DNA of 64,000 bases from a virus. Of the stretch, positions 9,455 to 43,456 are shown piece by piece. A program made the translations under genes and the position numbers. Numbering within the stretch: the first letter of the stretch is position 1; each line of letters opens with the position of its first letter. The stretch covers positions 32,001-96,000 of the IMG/VR virus record IMGVR_UViG_3300017971_000214; one strand, given 5' to 3'. Under the pieces are notes generated by a model. The model was given only the letters and a program-made list of their open reading frames with translations. It ran no database searches and was not told the DNA's origin.

Positions 9455-9865
9455 GTGAAGGTCGAGCTGAACAACATCAAGTTCAACAGCGTCGCGCAGG
9501 CGAGGTTCACCTTCGGCTCGGACGGCAGTGGGCAGAAGTCTACGACGGGCTACCGAGCCTCGAAGCAACTACCAGCAAATTGGATCAAAACCGTCTCCTG
9601 GCTCAACAAGGGGAAGATCCATATCGTTGCGCACGAGCCCATGTTCGCGCAGAAGGACAAGACCGTCCTCACCGTCCAGGTACTCCAACCCCCGGAGCAG
9701 CAGTGGCAGGGCTCCACATTCGTAGAAGACGCCCACACCGTGCTCGTCACGCTGATGCGCCTAGCTCCTCCAACCCACCCCCTTCCTGCTCCCTCAGATG
9801 ATCCCTTCGGCGGCTTGATGGCCCCAGGCGATTGCGGATTCGACCTCCTTGTCTGGACACGCTGA
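9455..9865 (+). CDS. hypothetical protein
   Basis: GTG 1 nt after the upstream stop. Confidence 0.6.
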   Translation: MKVELNNIKFNSVAQARFTFGSDGSGQKSTTGYRASKQLPANWIKTVSWLNKGKIHIVAHEPMFAQKDKTVLTVQVLQPPEQQWQGSTFVEDAHTVLVTLMRLAPPTHPLPAPSDDPFGGLMAPGDCGFDLLVWTR

Positions 9866-9958
9866 ACCTCTCTCACTACAATTGTTGACCATTGGTGATG
9901 GTTCAGTACGCTGAGACTTAACCATCACGGACGACAGCTCACTGAAAGGACGCTTCGG

Positions 9959-10714
9959 ATGCATGAACCGGAGGACGTGATGGGTCTGAAGCCAGGAGAG
10001 AATCCGAGGCATGTGTTACCGAGACACGAGGAGCGCAAGTCGGTCTTTTACGAGTTCGATCTCGCAACGGTGGCGGAGGCCGCTGGGGTCAACTATCAGA
10101 CGGCACGCAAGGCGGTCAGCACGGGGCGCTTGCAGCTCAAGGACGCGACAGCGGCTGAGCGCTTGCGTTCGGTGGCGAGCTACATCCAGCGGGCGCTGGT
10201 GCACAAGAGCAAGCCCATCCACAGCGACGAGGCTGTAGGCATGCTGAGCCCCGAGATGAGAAAGTGGTGGGCCGATCGGTGGCCCACGTTTGAGCTGTAC
10301 CGATGCGCGCACCCCGGATGTGATGAGTTGCTGTTCGGCCCTGGAGCCTGCGCGGAGCACGGCGGGGAGAGAAGGCCGCTCATCAAGCTCGACACGGACG
10401 GCCATGTCGCGCTTCTGCTGGGACGAGACTATGTCCCGCTACATCGCCTCGTGGCGCAGACGCCGAAAGGTCAGCACACGCACCACCGAGACGGCAACCC
10501 GTGGAACAACCGCTGGCAGAACTTGGAGTCGTTGTCTCCTGCGGAGCACGAATCTCGGCACATGGGGAGTGTGCTGTCGGCCAAGGTCGTCAAGAAGCAG
10601 CCCCCACGCCGCCCCTTCCGTAGCGAAATGGGTGCGGTGTCGAAGGCGGAGATGCAGAAGAAGGTCGACGAAGCCTACATGCGGGGGCTGAAGGACGGGA
10701 AGAAACGAGCGTAG
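9959..10714 (+). CDS. HTH + HNH endonuclease domain protein
   Basis: LATVAEAAGVNYQTARK HTH; LHRLV..HHRDGNPWNNRWQNL..H HNH motif. Confidence 0.8.
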   Translation: MHEPEDVMGLKPGENPRHVLPRHEERKSVFYEFDLATVAEAAGVNYQTARKAVSTGRLQLKDATAAERLRSVASYIQRALVHKSKPIHSDEAVGMLSPEMRKWWADRWPTFELYRCAHPGCDELLFGPGACAEHGGERRPLIKLDTDGHVALLLGRDYVPLHRLVAQTPKGQHTHHRDGNPWNNRWQNLESLSPAEHESRHMGSVLSAKVVKKQPPRRPFRSEMGAVSKAEMQKKVDEAYMRGLKDGKKRA

Positions 10715-10717
10715 CTC

Positions 10718-10981
10718 ATGGCCGCGACGAAGGAAGAGATCAGAGCGTTCTACGAACAGATGCTTGACGAACACGTGGACCTCGCCGAAGAGCTGATGCA
10801 CCTCAGCCGCCGTCTAGTGCGCACGCGCGGCGTGAAGGTAACGCGCTGCGACTTCCTGAACGGACTTTCGATCACCACCATCGAAGACCCCTATGCGGAC
10901 CCTCGCGAGATGGTGCTGCGCAGCGGCATGAGCACAGCACTCGTCAAGCTGGAAGTCGACAAGCCGGAGGGGGACGAATGA
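10718..10981 (+). CDS. hypothetical protein
   Basis: Coupled ORF with genome-like codon usage. Confidence 0.6.
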   Translation: MAATKEEIRAFYEQMLDEHVDLAEELMHLSRRLVRTRGVKVTRCDFLNGLSITTIEDPYADPREMVLRSGMSTALVKLEVDKPEGDE

Positions 10982-11637
10982 GCTGGCAACCTATCTGTCA
11001 TGGTGGACAGGTTCTTCGGACCAAGAAAGCCGCGAGGGAGCGAGCGCGGGAGATCCTGAACGGCTACAGCATCGGAGAGACCTTACTTCCCAAAGACTTG
11101 GCTTTCATGCTGTTGTTGTTTGAGCGGCACCCAGAGTTCGACTTGAAGCGGGGCTGCGGGATAGCATCTGTCCAGATCGAGAGTAACTGGAACAGCCGGG
11201 GGTTCTGGATCACCCGAGTGGACGGATCTAGGACAGACATCAGTTACCGTGCGTGCCTGTCCCCACCGACACACGAGCAGAACGTCAGGAACGCGATGCG
11301 TACCGAGATACGCGACCAGATCTGGGACTTCCGTAAGGAGCATCTGAAACCGGAAGCCCGCTGCTCTGTGACCGACGAACCGTTGACGTCCAACAACGTC
11401 CACGTAGATCACAAGTACCCGTTCGAGGATCTGCTGAGAGACTTTCTCGCCGCGTGGGGTTTGAGCGCGGATCAGATAACCATCCGTCCGACCTTTGACA
11501 AAGAGACGGACACGCTTTTGGCTGACCGCGCCCTGGCTGCTGCATGGCAGAAATACCATGGGGAACGCGCAGAGCTTCGGCTGGTGACGAGGTACGCTAA
11601 CCTCCACCTGTTGAGACGGAAGCCTGAGAGTCGATGA
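10978..11637 (+). CDS. DCL/DUF3223-like protein with C-terminal HNH-like motif
   Basis: LFERHPE..K.GCGI..F.I.RVDGS..DISYRACL; C-terminal HVDHKYPF. Confidence 0.75.
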   Translation: MSWQPICHGGQVLRTKKAARERAREILNGYSIGETLLPKDLAFMLLLFERHPEFDLKRGCGIASVQIESNWNSRGFWITRVDGSRTDISYRACLSPPTHEQNVRNAMRTEIRDQIWDFRKEHLKPEARCSVTDEPLTSNNVHVDHKYPFEDLLRDFLAAWGLSADQITIRPTFDKETDTLLADRALAAAWQKYHGERAELRLVTRYANLHLLRRKPESR

Positions 11638-11954
11638 AAGGCCACAGGCGCAATCCACTTGGCCCCCTGCGGATACCGCAGGCCGCGTGGGATGAGATGT
11701 TCGAGGAGCTAGAGCCTGTTCGGCGCGAAAGCGACGGGCGGTTGCTCAAACGCTACAGGCTGGTGAAGTTCGGGGGCGTGCCCATCGAAGACGTTCCCAT
11801 CTGTGTCGAGGACCCGATGGACCAGCTCATTCACTGCGAGCTGATCGAACGCAAGCCGCTGCCGATGCCGAAGACCCCGTCCATTTTCTTCATGGACTAT
11901 TCCTACGGATCGGACGATCCTGAAGGGACAGAGGGAGAAGACCCATGCGAGTGA
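11634..11954 (+). CDS. small protein ending in a T4 gp23 (major capsid)-like peptide
   Basis: ELIERKPLPMPKTPSIFFMDYSYG; ATGA-coupled. Confidence 0.6.
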   Translation: MKGHRRNPLGPLRIPQAAWDEMFEELEPVRRESDGRLLKRYRLVKFGGVPIEDVPICVEDPMDQLIHCELIERKPLPMPKTPSIFFMDYSYGSDDPEGTEGEDPCE

Positions 11955-12208
11955 AGTGCCCCAAGTGCGAACGTGAGTACCCGATTGCTCGGGGAAGTGA
12001 GGTCATCTGCCCCTGCGGGCACCGCTTCCCTGTGAAGGGCAACGAGGTGAAGCTACCGGAGATCTTCTGCGACGAGGACTTCTTCACCCAGCCTTGCCTT
12101 CAGCCTGTGTCGGACAACAAGCCGACGAGCACGGAGGAAGACATCGAGTACTTCCAGAAGAATCTGTACGCCGCCATGGGCATCCCGCCGGACATGCTGG
12201 GGAGGTAG
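11945..12208 (+). CDS. zinc-ribbon protein ending in a portal-like peptide
   Basis: CPKC..CPCG plus EEDIEYFQKNLYAAMGIPPDMLG. Confidence 0.65.
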   Translation: MRVKCPKCEREYPIARGSEVICPCGHRFPVKGNEVKLPEIFCDEDFFTQPCLQPVSDNKPTSTEEDIEYFQKNLYAAMGIPPDMLGR

Positions 12209-12210
12209 CC

Positions 12211-12435
12211 ATGTGTTTCCACTGCCGCCCCTATCCTCACTGCGAAGTGGTTCTGCAGATCGAACGTCCTTCGGAAGAAGAGCTGCACCTGACCGTCATC
12301 AAGGGCCGCTCGACTCCAGCCGAGGTTCGCTTCGACACTGCCGAGGACGGGTCCGATGTTGTGGAGGTCGCGGTCGCTCCCAACCGCCCGGCCGAACACA
12401 TCAGGTTCAAGTTCGAGCAAGGAGATGGCGACTAG
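12211..12435 (+). CDS. small protein ending in a tail-sheath C-terminal-like peptide
   Basis: SD GGGAGG; VVEVAVAPNRPAEHIRFKFEQ. Confidence 0.65.
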   Translation: MCFHCRPYPHCEVVLQIERPSEEELHLTVIKGRSTPAEVRFDTAEDGSDVVEVAVAPNRPAEHIRFKFEQGDGD

Positions 12436-14701: not shown

Positions 14702-15166
14702 ATGCCTCTACTCACCGAAGAACAGAAGCGGCTCATGGGGATCGAACCCCGCGACTTCGGCGGCATGCCTGCCATGTTCCAGCCCGGAGCCTTCCAAGAG
14801 ATGTCTGCCGAGGAGCTGGCAGAGGCCAAGAAGAAGGCCAAGAAGAAGAAGGCCAAGGGCCGGAAGAAGAGGACCGAGGGTCGCCGGTCGCTGACCCTGT
14901 TCCCCACCACGGAGGCCATGGTCAACGCTCTGGAGCGGGCCAACAAGCTCATCCAGCGGGTGAACGCCACGGTCAACCGCGAGCGCCAGGGGTCCTCGGG
15001 CACCGTCATGAATGAGAAGGCGCGCGCCGACATGTACCGGCTCGACCAAGAGCTAGCCACGGCCATGGACGCCGTGCGTTCGGCGAGCGACGCTCTGGAG
15101 TGCATCGAGCAGGCCAAGAAGATGGCTGCCCGCGAGGCGCGCCAAGCCCGCCGTCAGGGCCGCTAG
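14702..15166 (+). CDS. basic coiled-coil hypothetical protein
   Basis: Lys-rich stretch; strong codon bias; followed by a terminator. Confidence 0.75.
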   Translation: MPLLTEEQKRLMGIEPRDFGGMPAMFQPGAFQEMSAEELAEAKKKAKKKKAKGRKKRTEGRRSLTLFPTTEAMVNALERANKLIQRVNATVNRERQGSSGTVMNEKARADMYRLDQELATAMDAVRSASDALECIEQAKKMAAREARQARRQGR

Positions 15167-27001: not shown

Positions 27002-27505
27002 ATGAACGAACTGCTCTCAGCGCTCAAGACCCTGTTCTCGCACACCCTGTTCGCTGGGCCTGTTTCCGAACTGTCGATCGCCCAGATGGCGCTCGTCTAC
27101 AAGTTCGTGGACGCTGTCGAGAAGGCGGCGCAGGCGCGCAAGAAGGAGCTGAAGCCTACGCTCCTCGCCTACGCGCAGGCCAACGGGGAGAAGACGGAGA
27201 AGGGGCACTATCAGGCGTCTGCGGACGGGCACAAGATCATGAACGAGGTCCGTCAGGCCACTGAGCCTAAGATGGACGACTTCCGGGAGCTACTGGAAGA
27301 GAAGGGGCTCAAGTTGACCACTGCCTTCAACGAGGTGAAGACCCTCGTGTACGACCCGAGCAAGGTGAAGCACCTGATCGACGTAGGCAAGCTGGAGGCA
27401 GACGAAGTCGACGAGCTGCGCAGCACCAGCCATGCGCTGAAGGTCACGCTGAGCAAACCAGCGGCCAAGGAGCTGAAGGAGTCTCTACCCCCGAAGGGGG
27501 AGTGA
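27002..27505 (+). CDS. hypothetical phage protein
   Basis: SD GGAGG; strong codon bias. Confidence 0.75.
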   Translation: MNELLSALKTLFSHTLFAGPVSELSIAQMALVYKFVDAVEKAAQARKKELKPTLLAYAQANGEKTEKGHYQASADGHKIMNEVRQATEPKMDDFRELLEEKGLKLTTAFNEVKTLVYDPSKVKHLIDVGKLEADEVDELRSTSHALKVTLSKPAAKELKESLPPKGE

Positions 27506-27717
27506 TGTCCTGGATCGGCAACCAGCTGTTGCCGGCCGTCATGGATGCGCTGCACGCGCCGGGCGGTAGCGGGGAGTTCCGAAGGCCCTCGTCTGCCGCC
27601 CAGCTTGCGAGCTGGCTCCGTGCGGTTGGCTGCGAGTCCGAAGCGAAGTACGTCGAGAAGATGAACGAGGCTACCTTCCAGACGCTTCTCGACTACTTCC
27701 CCCTCGAAGACTCATGA
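27505..27717 (+). CDS. hypothetical protein
   Basis: TGATG coupling. Confidence 0.55.
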   Translation: MSWIGNQLLPAVMDALHAPGGSGEFRRPSSAAQLASWLRAVGCESEAKYVEKMNEATFQTLLDYFPLEDS

Positions 27718-40879: not shown

Positions 40880-43456
40880 GTGGGCGTTGATCTCGACAAA
40901 GGACTGGTTGCATCCATACTCCGCGATGGCCCCGACGCTTTGAAGGTCGTGAGGGAGTTCGGGATTGACGGCAGCCTTTTGGTAGATCCGGGGCGCAAGT
41001 TGTTCGACTTCGTCGAGCACTACTTTCGGCAGTATGGCCAGCTCCCCACGCCCGAGCTGCTGGTATCGAAGTTCGAGAAGGGCTCTCTTCCCGACGTGAA
41101 GGATCCAATTGAGTACTTCATCTTGGAGATCCGCGGCAGGAAACTGCAGAACGATCTGAAGGGCCGCGTCTACCCGTTCATGAAGATGCTCGAAGACGGG
41201 CAGAAACCCTTCGAGGCTCTAGACGAACTGGACATTCTGATCCGTGGTCTGCGTCAGGCTCACGAGATCACACGGGCTCAAGCCGAGAGCGTGCCGAAGC
41301 TGTGGCCTGAGGTGATGGATCTCTACGACCGGGTGAAGGGCGGGGAGAAGGGCATTCTCACCCCGTGGCCTACGGTGAACAACGAGACGCTAGGCTTCTG
41401 GCCTGAAGACCTCGCGCTGTTCGCGGCCCGGCTCGGCATAGGCAAGTGCGTAGCCGAGGATACGGAGATCGTAGACCCAGAGACAGGTGTTCCGCATACC
41501 ATCCACGAGGTGTGTGAGAGAGAAGATCTCAGGAAGGTGTTCACTTGGAGCAAGGAGCGGGGGGTTCACGCTGCGCGGATAACGGCCAAGGTAGACACGG
41601 GAGTAAAACCCTGTCTGCGGTTCCGCTTTGCGTCTGGTCGCGAGGTCACTGTGACGCCGGAGCACCCTTTTCTGACCTCAGCTGGTTGGGAACCAGCGGC
41701 GGACTTGGTTGTGGGGGCTTCTGTGGGCCTTCCGGCTCGGGTGCCGTTCCCCGAGAGCCCCGAGCAGCTGCTTCCAGAGGCGGTTGATCTCCTCGCACTC
41801 CTGTTGGCGGAAGGGAGCTATAGCGGGAAGCACGTTGGGGTCTCTAGCGATGATGACGTATTGTTGTCGATCGCTAGTCGAGCGTCTGACGCTTTCGGAG
41901 TAGATCTGAAGTACCGCTCGGGAGTCGACTACGATTTCGTCCGGCGGGAGAAGTCAGGCCCCAACCATGTGAGGACGTTTCTACGCTCTCACGATATGGA
42001 CGGGAAGAAGGCCGTAGACAAGATTATCCCAGAAGCCGTGTTTGGTCTCCCTTCCGATCAGCTAGCTCGGTTCCTCGGGCTGTTCTGGATGTGTGACGGG
42101 TACGTAGATGGCACCGGTCCTGGCGTGACGCTTGCCTCCGAGAAGATGGTTCAGCAGCTCCAACATCTTCTCCTCCGTTTTGGGATTCATAGTAGTGTTG
42201 ATCCAAAGAAGGCTACGTGTGAGGGGCGTGTATTCAACGCGTGGCGTCTCAGGGTGTACGCTTCCTCTTGGCCTGTGTTCTTGGCCGCTATTCCGCTGTG
42301 GGGTAGCAAGCGAGAGCGGTTGGAGGAGTTGGAGAGCCTGGACCGAAATCCTAACATCGGCTTCCCCAGGGTTTCAGGGGAGTTCAAGGCGCATCTTTTG
42401 GGATTGGTACGGAAGAGAGAAAACCATGGGAAGCTGAAACAGGTTGGCGAGCGCCTTGGCTGGTCCAGCTATTTCATGTTCCGCAGCCTGTTCGGGAAGG
42501 GCGACACTTTGTTGCTTCGGCGCTTCGCGGTGTTCTGCGAAGTATTTGGGCTGGAAAGGGAGTTCGGTTGGTTGTGGGACAGTGAGATTTTCTGGGACTC
42601 TGTGGAGTCTATCGAGGACGTCGGCCCTACCAAGATCTATGACCTCACTGTCGAGCCTTCTGCGTGTTTCTTGGCCAATGACGTGATCGTTCACAACACG
42701 TGGGCGGCGGCCATCATCGCTCATCACGCGTGGGCCGTGGGCGGCCACAAGGTGCTGTTCGGAACGACGGAGATCTCCAAGATTCGCATCGCCATGCGCT
42801 TCGCGGCGATCCACTTCAAACTCCCCTACCGTGAGATTCGCCTCGGGAAGCTCGACGCCTTCAACGAGAAGAAGATGCGCGATGGCATCAAAGACATCAT
42901 GGATGCCGAGGGGCTGTACGTCATCGGCGGGGACTTCGACTTCCGCGTGGAGTCCTACGAGAACGCCGTCGAAGAGGTGGCGCCCGAGCTGTCGATCTTG
43001 GACGGAGCCTATTTGCTCAAGACGCAGGGGCAAACCAGGACCGAGCGCGCTGCCAACGCCTTCGACGAGCTGAAGCGAATTTGCAAGCGCACGAAGTGCC
43101 CGAGCATCGTCACCATGCAGTTCAACCGCGAGGTGAAGGCAGGCTCCAAGGCCACGGCAGACGCCGGCAACATCGCGCTGACCGACGTCGCTGGCTGGAA
43201 CGCCGATCTCGCCTACGGACTGATCCAGTCCGAGGACATGAAGAAGGACCGCCGTATGATCTTCAAGCCCTTGAAGGTCCGTGAAGGCGAGGGCGAGGAG
43301 TTCGAGGTCAATTGGGACATCGACAAGGTGAACTTCACCGAGCTGCCGAAGCTGGGTGGCGGCGGGGGTGGAGCCGATGATGATGACGATCCGTTCGGTG
43401 CTGGAGTGAACGGCACGGGCGCCAGCTCGGGCGGTTCGGACGAGGTGCCTTTCTAG
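40880..43456 (+). CDS. dnaB: DnaB-like replicative helicase containing an intein
   Basis: AARLGIGK|T Walker A, ILDGAYL, MQFNRE, LKVREG. Confidence 0.88.
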   Translation: MGVDLDKGLVASILRDGPDALKVVREFGIDGSLLVDPGRKLFDFVEHYFRQYGQLPTPELLVSKFEKGSLPDVKDPIEYFILEIRGRKLQNDLKGRVYPFMKMLEDGQKPFEALDELDILIRGLRQAHEITRAQAESVPKLWPEVMDLYDRVKGGEKGILTPWPTVNNETLGFWPEDLALFAARLGIGKCVAEDTEIVDPETGVPHTIHEVCEREDLRKVFTWSKERGVHAARITAKVDTGVKPCLRFRFASGREVTVTPEHPFLTSAGWEPAADLVVGASVGLPARVPFPESPEQLLPEAVDLLALLLAEGSYSGKHVGVSSDDDVLLSIASRASDAFGVDLKYRSGVDYDFVRREKSGPNHVRTFLRSHDMDGKKAVDKIIPEAVFGLPSDQLARFLGLFWMCDGYVDGTGPGVTLASEKMVQQLQHLLLRFGIHSSVDPKKATCEGRVFNAWRLRVYASSWPVFLAAIPLWGSKRERLEELESLDRNPNIGFPRVSGEFKAHLLGLVRKRENHGKLKQVGERLGWSSYFMFRSLFGKGDTLLLRRFAVFCEVFGLEREFGWLWDSEIFWDSVESIEDVGPTKIYDLTVEPSACFLANDVIVHNTWAAAIIAHHAWAVGGHKVLFGTTEISKIRIAMRFAAIHFKLPYREIRLGKLDAFNEKKMRDGIKDIMDAEGLYVIGGDFDFRVESYENAVEEVAPELSILDGAYLLKTQGQTRTERAANAFDELKRICKRTKCPSIVTMQFNREVKAGSKATADAGNIALTDVAGWNADLAYGLIQSEDMKKDRRMIFKPLKVREGEGEEFEVNWDIDKVNFTELPKLGGGGGGADDDDDPFGAGVNGTGASSGGSDEVPF
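41447..42697 (+). mobile_element. intein (417 aa) with LAGLIDADG endonuclease, in the DnaB Walker A
   Basis: CVAEDT start, VTPEHPF, LLLAEG, FLGLFWMCDG, IYDLTVE..IVHN end, +1 Thr. Confidence 0.92.

Follow-up and report, generated by a model that had tools for sequence, protein, structure and literature searches.

Three consecutive small genes of a T4-like virus, here called A, B and C, each end in a tail that, as judged by sequence comparison, is paralogous to a segment of one of the phage's own virion genes and is joined to a small scaffold. The genes lie in a 64,000-nucleotide stretch of DNA (the window) that comprises bases 32001 to 96000 of the 126,260-base IMG/VR record IMGVR_UViG_3300017971_000214, which has a guanine-plus-cytosine (GC) content of ~61% and is estimated to be ~68% complete. 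The tail of A (11634 to 11954, 106 residues) copies a block from the phage's major capsid protein (MCP), that of B (11945 to 12208, 87 residues) copies part of the portal protein, and C (12211 to 12435, 74 residues) carries a piece of the tail sheath protein. An earlier note, made from the letters of the window, had placed three open reading frames (ORFs) here, each ending in a peptide that mimics one of these proteins, and we found both the ORFs and the peptides exactly where it had put them, on the plus strand. The note took the copied pieces to be only ~22 to 25 residues long, each on an unrelated scaffold. The pieces proved to be longer, at ~35 residues in A, 45 in B and 50 in C; about 50 of the 74 residues of C and 45 of the 87 residues of B align to the parent protein, and the scaffolds are therefore not altogether foreign to the virion proteins. 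We consider it very likely that A, B and C are functional genes derived from fragments, and the known kind behind them is that of phage-encoded mimics or paralogues of virion proteins.

Virion-protein segments in genes A, B and C

When each small protein was compared by tblastn with the phage's own 126-kb genome, its best non-self match was the cognate virion gene: residues 65 to 101 of A matched the MCP, residues 43 to 87 of B matched the portal, and residues 21 to 70 of C matched the C terminus of the sheath (E 3e-7). The E value of 2.6e-4 obtained in this way for A and the MCP is a sum statistic inflated by an out-of-frame piece. Hidden Markov models (HMMs) gave the same picture, in that each found two matches only in the six-frame genome, the small gene itself and its own virion counterpart, with E values of 0.0079 for the MCP (HMM of A and its close homologues), 1.8e-4 for the portal (B) and 5.9e-6 for the sheath (C). 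In a three-by-three Smith-Waterman test, none of 3000 shuffles attained the score of any of the cognate pairs; for the six non-cognate pairs, the count was 80 to 1870 of 3000. All-against-all BLAST of 1878 frames returned ~80 pairs at E < 0.05; C and the sheath paired at E 2e-6, and the pairs of A with the MCP (E 0.012) and B with the portal (E 0.023), taken alone, are at the level of noise. The likeness to MCP, portal and sheath that the earlier note had drawn from family motifs was thus borne out by tblastn, the HMMs, the shuffles and a profile of 35 distant relatives of A (described below), all of which name the cognate own gene, and it is in the motifs that homologues of the small proteins are best conserved, so that neither of the outcomes named in the note as refuting its reading was seen.

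Gene A has a small N-terminal domain (approximately residues 13 to 63) and a C-terminal tail, in which approximately residues 63 to 96 (11820 to 11921) are homologous to residues ~88 to 125 of the MCP. An AlphaFold2 model gave the N-terminal domain predicted local distance difference test (pLDDT) scores of 63 to 77 and the tail (residues 64 to 103) scores below 50, with a mean of 56 for the whole protein, which suggests that the tail is disordered and hence displayed. A wide VIA-align search with this model gave a best Z score of 3.7 and no fold assignment, and an ESM Atlas search returned nothing at ≥0.9. Between the MCP and mature T4 gp23 chains, phmmer aligns no N-terminal stretch other than residues 81 to 130 of the MCP, and the chain offsets place the block at residues ~86 to 135 of T4 gp23. 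We take the Gol region to be residues 93 to 122 of T4 gp23.

Gene A has no Pfam match at E ≤ 1; it falls short of membership in the gp23 MCP family (PF07068; cut-off, 24.4 bits), with ~35 residues aligned to a 376-position profile; and a profile of seven GenBank gp23-like MCPs reached it at E 7.4 (rank 3 of 1878 frames), which is not significant, or at E 0.81 once the phage's own MCP had been added. We therefore rely on a wider family. When 1.84 billion representatives were searched exhaustively by HMMER with the A alignment, 37 proteins came up at E ≤ 0.001, of which ten were at E ≤ 1e-10; most of the 37 are 71 to 158 residues long. They represent 37 clusters at 50% identity, are 34 to 57% identical to the A of the window and make up a family of small proteins undescribed so far; there are also three close homologues of A with 58 to 85% identity. 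The family alignment contains 39 of 40 sequences, P0042 (372 residues, with seven short repeated matches) having been left out. Besides a DGR..KR motif, the tail is the most conserved part of the family, and its HMMER consensus (pmdqlfevelvevkPmemPkgsifyldykyg) pairs column for column with the stretch NLIANEIVSVQPMTAPVGAVFFLDYVYG of the phage's own MCP. A profile of 35 family members, from which the A of the window and its three close relatives had been removed, matched residues 91 to 124 of the MCP at E 2e-6; among the 1878 frames no other non-self one was significant, the next best standing at E 5.9. The same profile matched seven of eight gp23-like MCPs of diverse phages, always at the same block, and reached the eighth at E 0.86. 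It is only because of this distant profile that the link between A and the MCP is firm.

Scanned singly, four of the 39 aligned A-family members match Pfam Gp23 (best E 8.7e-5) and two match phrog_138, a major head protein. Weak RHH_1 and Arc-like matches (E 0.0038 to 0.0084) each come from one of the 39 members, which is taken to be P0016, the N terminus of which looks ribbon-helix-helix-like by eye. The family was also considered as a RiPP-like (ribosomally synthesized and post-translationally modified peptide) precursor and rejected as such: there is one weak Nif11 match (1 of 39, E 0.0035), but the conserved part is the C-terminal tail and not a leader. Two members are fusions. P0010 (147 residues) joins a zinc-ribbon head of the type found in B (22 of 28 residues identical, 79%), with two of the four cysteines replaced, to an A-like body, which suggests that modules have been shuffled between mini-gene families, and P0017 joins a head like that of an 87-residue gene upstream of A in the window to an A-like body. 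Neither Pfam nor PHROGs has a dedicated family for A, B or C, and only a few members touch the models of the parent virion proteins there; tblastn of A and of the family member P0044 against 50,697 GenBank phage records found nothing similar.

Gene B consists of a zinc ribbon followed by a portal-derived tail. The ribbon (CPKC...CPCG, approximately residues 4 to 29; 11954 to 12031) has weak Pfam zinc-ribbon matches, the best at E 0.0013, and all four of its cysteines are invariant in the alignment of B homologues, one of which, P0005, is 57% identical to B. The portal-like part, residues 43 to 87 (12071 to 12205), was recovered not only by tblastn and the HMM but also by Pfam, in which it matches positions 284 to 304 of Portal_T4 at E 0.0087 (284 to 306 in the genome search), and by PHROGs (phrog_213, portal, E 0.0041). 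As this match covers a small part of a 433-position profile, B does not qualify as a T4-like portal (PF07230), scoring 15.3 bits against a cut-off of 22.9. The DEDFF of B aligns with a clip strand at approximately residues 331 to 335 of T4 gp20, and EDIEYFQKNLYAAMGIP pairs with the channel loop's end and with stem helix alpha-7 (approximately residues 358 to 376); in gp20, the clip comprises residues 279 to 358, the stem residues 255 to 278 and 359 to 377, and the channel loop residues 350 to 359 (Sun et al. 2015, PMC4493910). B shares DIEYFQ exactly with the phage's own portal, where solved relatives read DIRWFR.

Gene C begins with a cysteine cluster (C2, C5 and C11), which is followed by an all-beta body. 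Its residues 21 to 70 (12271 to 12420) are homologous to the last ~50 residues of the phage's own sheath, with which it shares APNRPAE exactly, where solved relatives read APVKPAE. The best sequence match of C in the PDB is likewise a tail sheath C terminus (9ezm_A, residues 540 to 569 of 574), at an E value of 0.41 that is not significant alone, and the C terminus of the phage's own sheath aligns to the ends of solved sheaths. Behind its cysteine cluster, C bears the three final strands of the sheath. We found no Pfam family for C at E ≤ 1, and genome searches with PF04984 and PF17482 find the sheath frame only. Two homologues of the same length are 78% and 72% identical to C, and tblastn against the GenBank phage records gave only 12 rows at E 5 to 8, which we read as noise. 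The AlphaFold2 model of C is a five-strand beta meander (mean pLDDT 62), for which Foldseek found nothing in the PDB at E ≤ 0.001. Complex prediction of C with two pieces of the sheath (residues 1 to 100 and 726 to 1017) returned "no answer" with a score of 0.00, which speaks neither for nor against binding. The sheath protein itself is unusually long (1017 residues): likeness to solved sheaths is confined to approximately the first 100 and the last 290 residues, and the 600 residues in the middle are insertions rich in threonine, glycine and alanine.

The parent genes are intact. The portal gene (genome positions 107167 to 108420; Pfam Portal_T4, 253 bits), the gp23-type MCP gene (113276 to 114529; 251 bits) and the tail sheath gene (120027 to 123077, locus L014) lie in open frames of 616, 515 and 1020 residues, respectively, that have no internal stops, and each has its own copy of the segment concerned, which rules out the possibility that A, B and C are pieces of split virion genes. 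The MCP is at most ~37% identical to any MCP in the 50,697 GenBank phage records, which places the phage in a deep-branching uncultured lineage. At the DNA level, the fragments are 50 to 71% identical to their parent segments; the copies are therefore old, and recent gene conversion is ruled out. A diversity-generating retroelement was rejected as the source on the basis of the same DNA identities and of a search for RVT_1, which gave no match at E ≤ 1 in the 126-kb record, itself ~68% complete. Contigs from a marsh metagenome extend over A, B and C with no gaps. They bridge the HNH-like gene next to A with A and B (24 differences in 734 bases) and B with C (45 in 309), cover C (48 in 257) and also bridge C to the following gene, the contigs across B-C and C being 81 to 85% identical to the window in DNA.

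Gene run, genome setting and relatives

A, B and C adjoin one another in a single tightly packed run. The start of B overlaps the end of A by 10 bases and C begins 2 bases past the stop of B; both B and C are preceded by Shine-Dalgarno-like ribosome-binding sites of the GGAG type, and the GC content of the three genes by codon position (0.40 at the second position and 0.72 to 0.84 at the third) has the same pattern as that of the bona fide genes of the genome. We take A, B and C to be genuine small genes kept by selection. Within the genome, the cassette is at 43.6 to 44.4 kb, against 107, 113 and 120 kb for the portal, MCP and sheath genes, so that 63 to 76 kb separate the copies from their parents, in agreement with the earlier note, which had put the cassette far from the structural module.

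The run, all of which is on the plus strand, opens with an HNH endonuclease gene (9959 to 10714; Pfam HNH_3, E 6.9e-7; phrog_7545, E 3.3e-12). This is followed by the 87-residue gene mentioned above (10718 to 10981), the stop of which overlaps the start of the next gene and which lies two genes before A. Its N terminus resembles the N-terminal extension of the A-like fusion P0017 (12 of 30 residues identical, pairwise E 2e-4), and on this ground it is possibly part of one functional unit with A. The gene that adjoins A upstream (10978 to 11637) encodes a DUF3223 and HNH-like protein (Pfam DUF3223, E 3.3e-17; phrog_28887, E 5.5e-32), and its stop overlaps the start of A. A marsh-metagenome contig matches the window only from 11524 on, inside this gene, and is unlike it upstream, so that a relative may lack this second HNH gene or carry something else in its place. 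A sigma-70-like promoter match (TGGACA-17-TACAAT, 10 of 12 positions) stands before the run at 9854 to 9882 on the plus strand; two such matches occur in 8 kb, compared with 1.0 ± 1.2 in shuffles, which makes this weak evidence. The T4 late-promoter motif is absent from the whole genome and therefore gives no information on timing. Elsewhere in the genome, two large frames (window positions 40880 to 43456 and genome positions 101769 to 106229) are paralogous, with 29% identity over 457 columns (E 1e-37). At window positions 14777 to 15027, all four marsh runs pile up, to a summed word depth of 46 to 273 compared with 0 to 8 elsewhere; the pile-up has many loose ends rich in AAG repeats and marks a lysine-codon-rich, low-complexity stretch that attracts the contigs of other organisms.

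Searches of viral and metagenome contigs gave no relatives of A, B or C with DNA context. A search with an A-family sub-alignment gave two loci (L015 and L016), and a B-type alignment returned a contig that had already been found. The two contigs with A-like relatives are estimated to be ~24% and 59% complete and have no MCP or portal gene. In L015, from a second phage, an A-like gene is found upstream of two B-like genes, at distances of 0.6 kb and 2 kb, and each of the two encodes a zinc ribbon and a portal helix; the evidence comprises a match to phrog_104 (portal) at E 3.1e-4, one to positions 283 to 335 of Portal_T4 and a score against the B of the window that 0 of 2000 shuffles reached. 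The ORF list shows no HNH gene nearby in L015, where only seven ORFs were scanned against Pfam and PHROGs. The two B-like paralogues (L015, 10972 to 12718) flank a minus-strand gene for a 321-residue protein of no known family, and both have an extra tail, GK[YW]WVLPP...SLYGWH, that shares VGKYWVL with this protein (8 of 2000 shuffles); the tail may be another copied segment. In L016, from a third phage, the A-like gene comes after an HNH gene and a nucleotidyltransferase gene, the HNH gene being 1.1 kb upstream. Endonuclease genes are also found within a capsid gene: in Bacillus phage SP-15 (KT624200.1, 25518 to 27984), the MCP match falls in two pieces, annotated as "major capsid protein (x2)" and "putative endonuclease", and by its sequence layout this capsid gene is endonuclease interrupted.

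A fourth fragment gene lies outside the window, ~4.5 kb before its start, on the minus strand at genome positions 27061 to 27540 (locus L002). The C-terminal ~50 residues of its 160-residue product copy residues 243 to 303 of the phage's own portal, leading into the first stem helix (0 of 1000 shuffles; Portal_T4 positions 203 to 234, E 7.1e-4). Judged by eye, the portal piece is preceded by an HNH-like Cys/His finger and by a stretch that resembles a ribbon-helix-helix.

Candidate functions

From their sequences, A, B and C probably act by competitive mimicry, in that each displayed segment would occupy the site of whatever binds that segment of the unassembled virion protein. As the partner we tentatively favor, by analogy and at less than even chances, a host motif reader, namely, an abortive-infection sensor of the Lit or CapRel type or the EF-Tu complex of Lit. 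An early copy would bind such a reader without activating it and would blunt the alarm at the appearance of the late proteins. The Gol region, 29 residues in the first quarter of gp23 and its most conserved part, binds domains II and III of EF-Tu and activates the Lit protease (PMC3014915). We favor a motif reader because the MCP block is the only segment of the capsid family known to be read linearly by abortive infection, because the tail of A is modeled as exposed, because the genes belong to an accessory run of patchy distribution that includes homing endonuclease genes and has a sigma-70-like promoter match in front of it, and because T4 vs.8, Ksap1 and Ksap2 (discussed below) give a published parallel. 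The patchy distribution shows in A, P0044 and C, which have no similar sequence in the 50,697 GenBank phage records, and the context is typical of conflict genes.

The earlier note had read the cassette as decoys that titrate host sensors, of the Avs or CapRel type for example; several points weigh against a host sensor as the target. The 29-residue Gol region is enough to define Gol function (PMC3014915), so that a free copy could trigger a Lit-type sensor rather than titrate it. The SVQPM core, some form of which is retained by each of the eight aligned MCPs, is lost in the A of the window, which reads ERKPLPM; V[KQ]PM is still present in the wider A family. Avs sensors envelop the whole fold of their targets, whereas Lit and CapRel detect the MCP by short sequence motifs (Lee et al. 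2026), and a fragment of 35 to 50 residues would therefore do poorly as an Avs decoy and is better suited to a motif reader. The same source counts the tail sheath among the sensor targets still to be found. By analogy with solved structures, the portal and sheath pieces look like self-association elements, which suggests that they fit an assembly rival at least equally well, and early expression rests on a single weak promoter match.

Taken more broadly, and again by analogy, the hypothesis would be that the genomes of large uncultured phages encode a modular, reshuffled set of "self-epitope" mini-proteins on zinc or beta scaffolds, which copy the short motifs that host abortive-infection systems use to recognize capsid, portal and sheath proteins, an idea that we regard as speculative and possible, on the doubtful side; copies made before the late proteins would pre-occupy or desensitize motif-reading sensors. 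If it were true, it would mean a new class of anti-defense built from the trigger itself, and the A family would be a natural Gol antagonist. The literature searched, supplements aside, describes no virion-fragment mini-genes in the text that was available, and the available parts of the anti-defense surveys mention no decoy derived from capsid, portal or sheath.

The main rival to competitive mimicry of a sensor ligand is interference with assembly, because a free Gol-like peptide might activate a sensor rather than block it, no sheath sensor is known from the literature read and the portal and sheath pieces come from self-association elements. A, B and C would then be poison subunits or caps that dock on free MCP, portal and sheath and block or delay their polymerization, the target being a co-infecting related phage, a satellite (as in dominant-negative exclusion) or the phage's own proteins or their premature polymers, with a role in timing or a chaperone-like one; we think this possible, on the doubtful side. 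The earlier note had named dominant-negative inhibition of assembly as its own alternative, which is thus still a live rival. The N and C termini of sheath proteins form an inter-subunit "handshake" sheet, by which the C-terminal domain in the ring beneath is augmented (PMC10457771), and C copies C-terminal strands; similarly, the three-stranded sheet of the T4 portal clip is built from the strands of adjacent subunits (PMC4493910), and B copies a clip strand and alpha-7. Against this rival, the tail of A is modeled as disordered and not as a lattice element. A 24-residue clip peptide (residues 288 to 311) binds gp17 and inhibits packaging (PMC4493910), but it covers a clip segment different from that of B. 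The fourth fragment gene copies the other stem helix region of the portal, few copies are enough to poison a polymer, and the homing endonucleases that accompany the cassette are classic tools of phage-phage competition. A core assembly factor, however, would be expected to be widespread and part of the structural module, whereas A, B and C have a patchy distribution and lie far from it. Moreover, the fragments are closest to the phage's own alleles, with APNRPAE and DIEYFQ identical, and self-poisoning would need an unexplained immunity.

Alternatively, the copied segment could serve as a handle by which an accumulating virion protein captures a small regulator, coupling expression to assembly. 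The zinc ribbons of B and P0010, the nucleic-acid-binding type of head in one of the 39 aligned A-family members and the finger and ribbon-helix-helix-like stretch of the fourth fragment gene point this way, but these domain assignments are weak, being made at E 0.0038 to 0.0084 in single members or by eye, and the A and C of the window have no head of that kind, so that we judge such a role unlikely. We regard it as slightly less probable still that the three genes are functionless by-products of homing-endonuclease or recombination activity that hitch-hike beside HNH genes. Two HNH genes in the same run, the HNH gene upstream of the A-like gene of L016, the marsh contig that suggests a polymorphic second HNH gene and the endonuclease-split MCP gene of phage SP-15 would all suit that explanation; neutral relics, however, would not have retained an open frame, a ribosome-binding site and one and the same motif throughout 37 clusters, A-like and B-like genes recur together in L015, where no HNH gene is in the nearby ORF list (seven ORFs library scanned), and the low DNA identity to the parents argues against recent conversion tracts. 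As for a chance resemblance of three unrelated small proteins, the BLAST pairs of A with the MCP and B with the portal are within the all-against-all noise and the GenBank MCP profile misses A. Three of three adjacent genes nevertheless have a different hallmark virion protein as their only non-self HMM match, no shuffle reached the score of any cognate pair, the distant profile finds the MCP, and the Pfam and PHROG libraries name portal and head protein; on these sequence comparisons, chance is already refuted, with a negligible probability left to it.

Comparison with known phage systems

Should competitive mimicry hold, A, B and C would mark the short capsid, portal and sheath segments that are most important in phage-host or phage-phage conflict in uncultured lineages; if they are assembly poisons, they would amount to naturally occurring peptides that inhibit portal, capsid and sheath polymerization. 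The A family in particular offers a handle on a question raised previously (PMC3014915), namely, whether interaction between EF-Tu and the conserved Gol block of gp23-type capsid proteins is general among hosts, and it would also test whether phages can counter Lit-type sensing without mutating an essential protein.

The closest known systems each share features with the cassette. In the Gol-Lit-EF-Tu system, the tail of A is homologous by position to the conserved N-terminal block of gp23; A differs in being a separate 106-residue gene outside the capsid protein, known here from sequence, and in that the copy in the window has lost the VQPM core. T4 vs.8, Ksap1 and Ksap2 are, like A, B and C, free-standing small phage genes that resemble a virion or packaging protein and are restricted to some phage taxa (PMC13601566). 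Their resemblance is to terminase, and they fit into the pocket of Avs2; an anti-defense role is raised for them, their function being left open (PMC13601566). However, vs.8 is a whole ATPase-domain paralogue with Walker motifs and is toxic with EcAvs2, so that it triggers the sensor (PMC13601566), whereas A, B and C are fragments of 35 to 50 residues on foreign scaffolds, and of capsid, portal and sheath rather than of terminase.

On the assembly side, B resembles the clip and stem of T4 gp20 in the strand and helix that it copies, and the clip peptide shows that a short portal piece can compete (PMC4493910), but that peptide is a laboratory reagent from another part of the clip, and B is a fragment and not a portal. 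C, finally, resembles the "handshake" elements of tail sheaths, the termini of which form the inter-subunit sheet in solved structures (PMC10457771), but it presents these C-terminal strands in a protein of 74 residues that has none of the other sheath domains.

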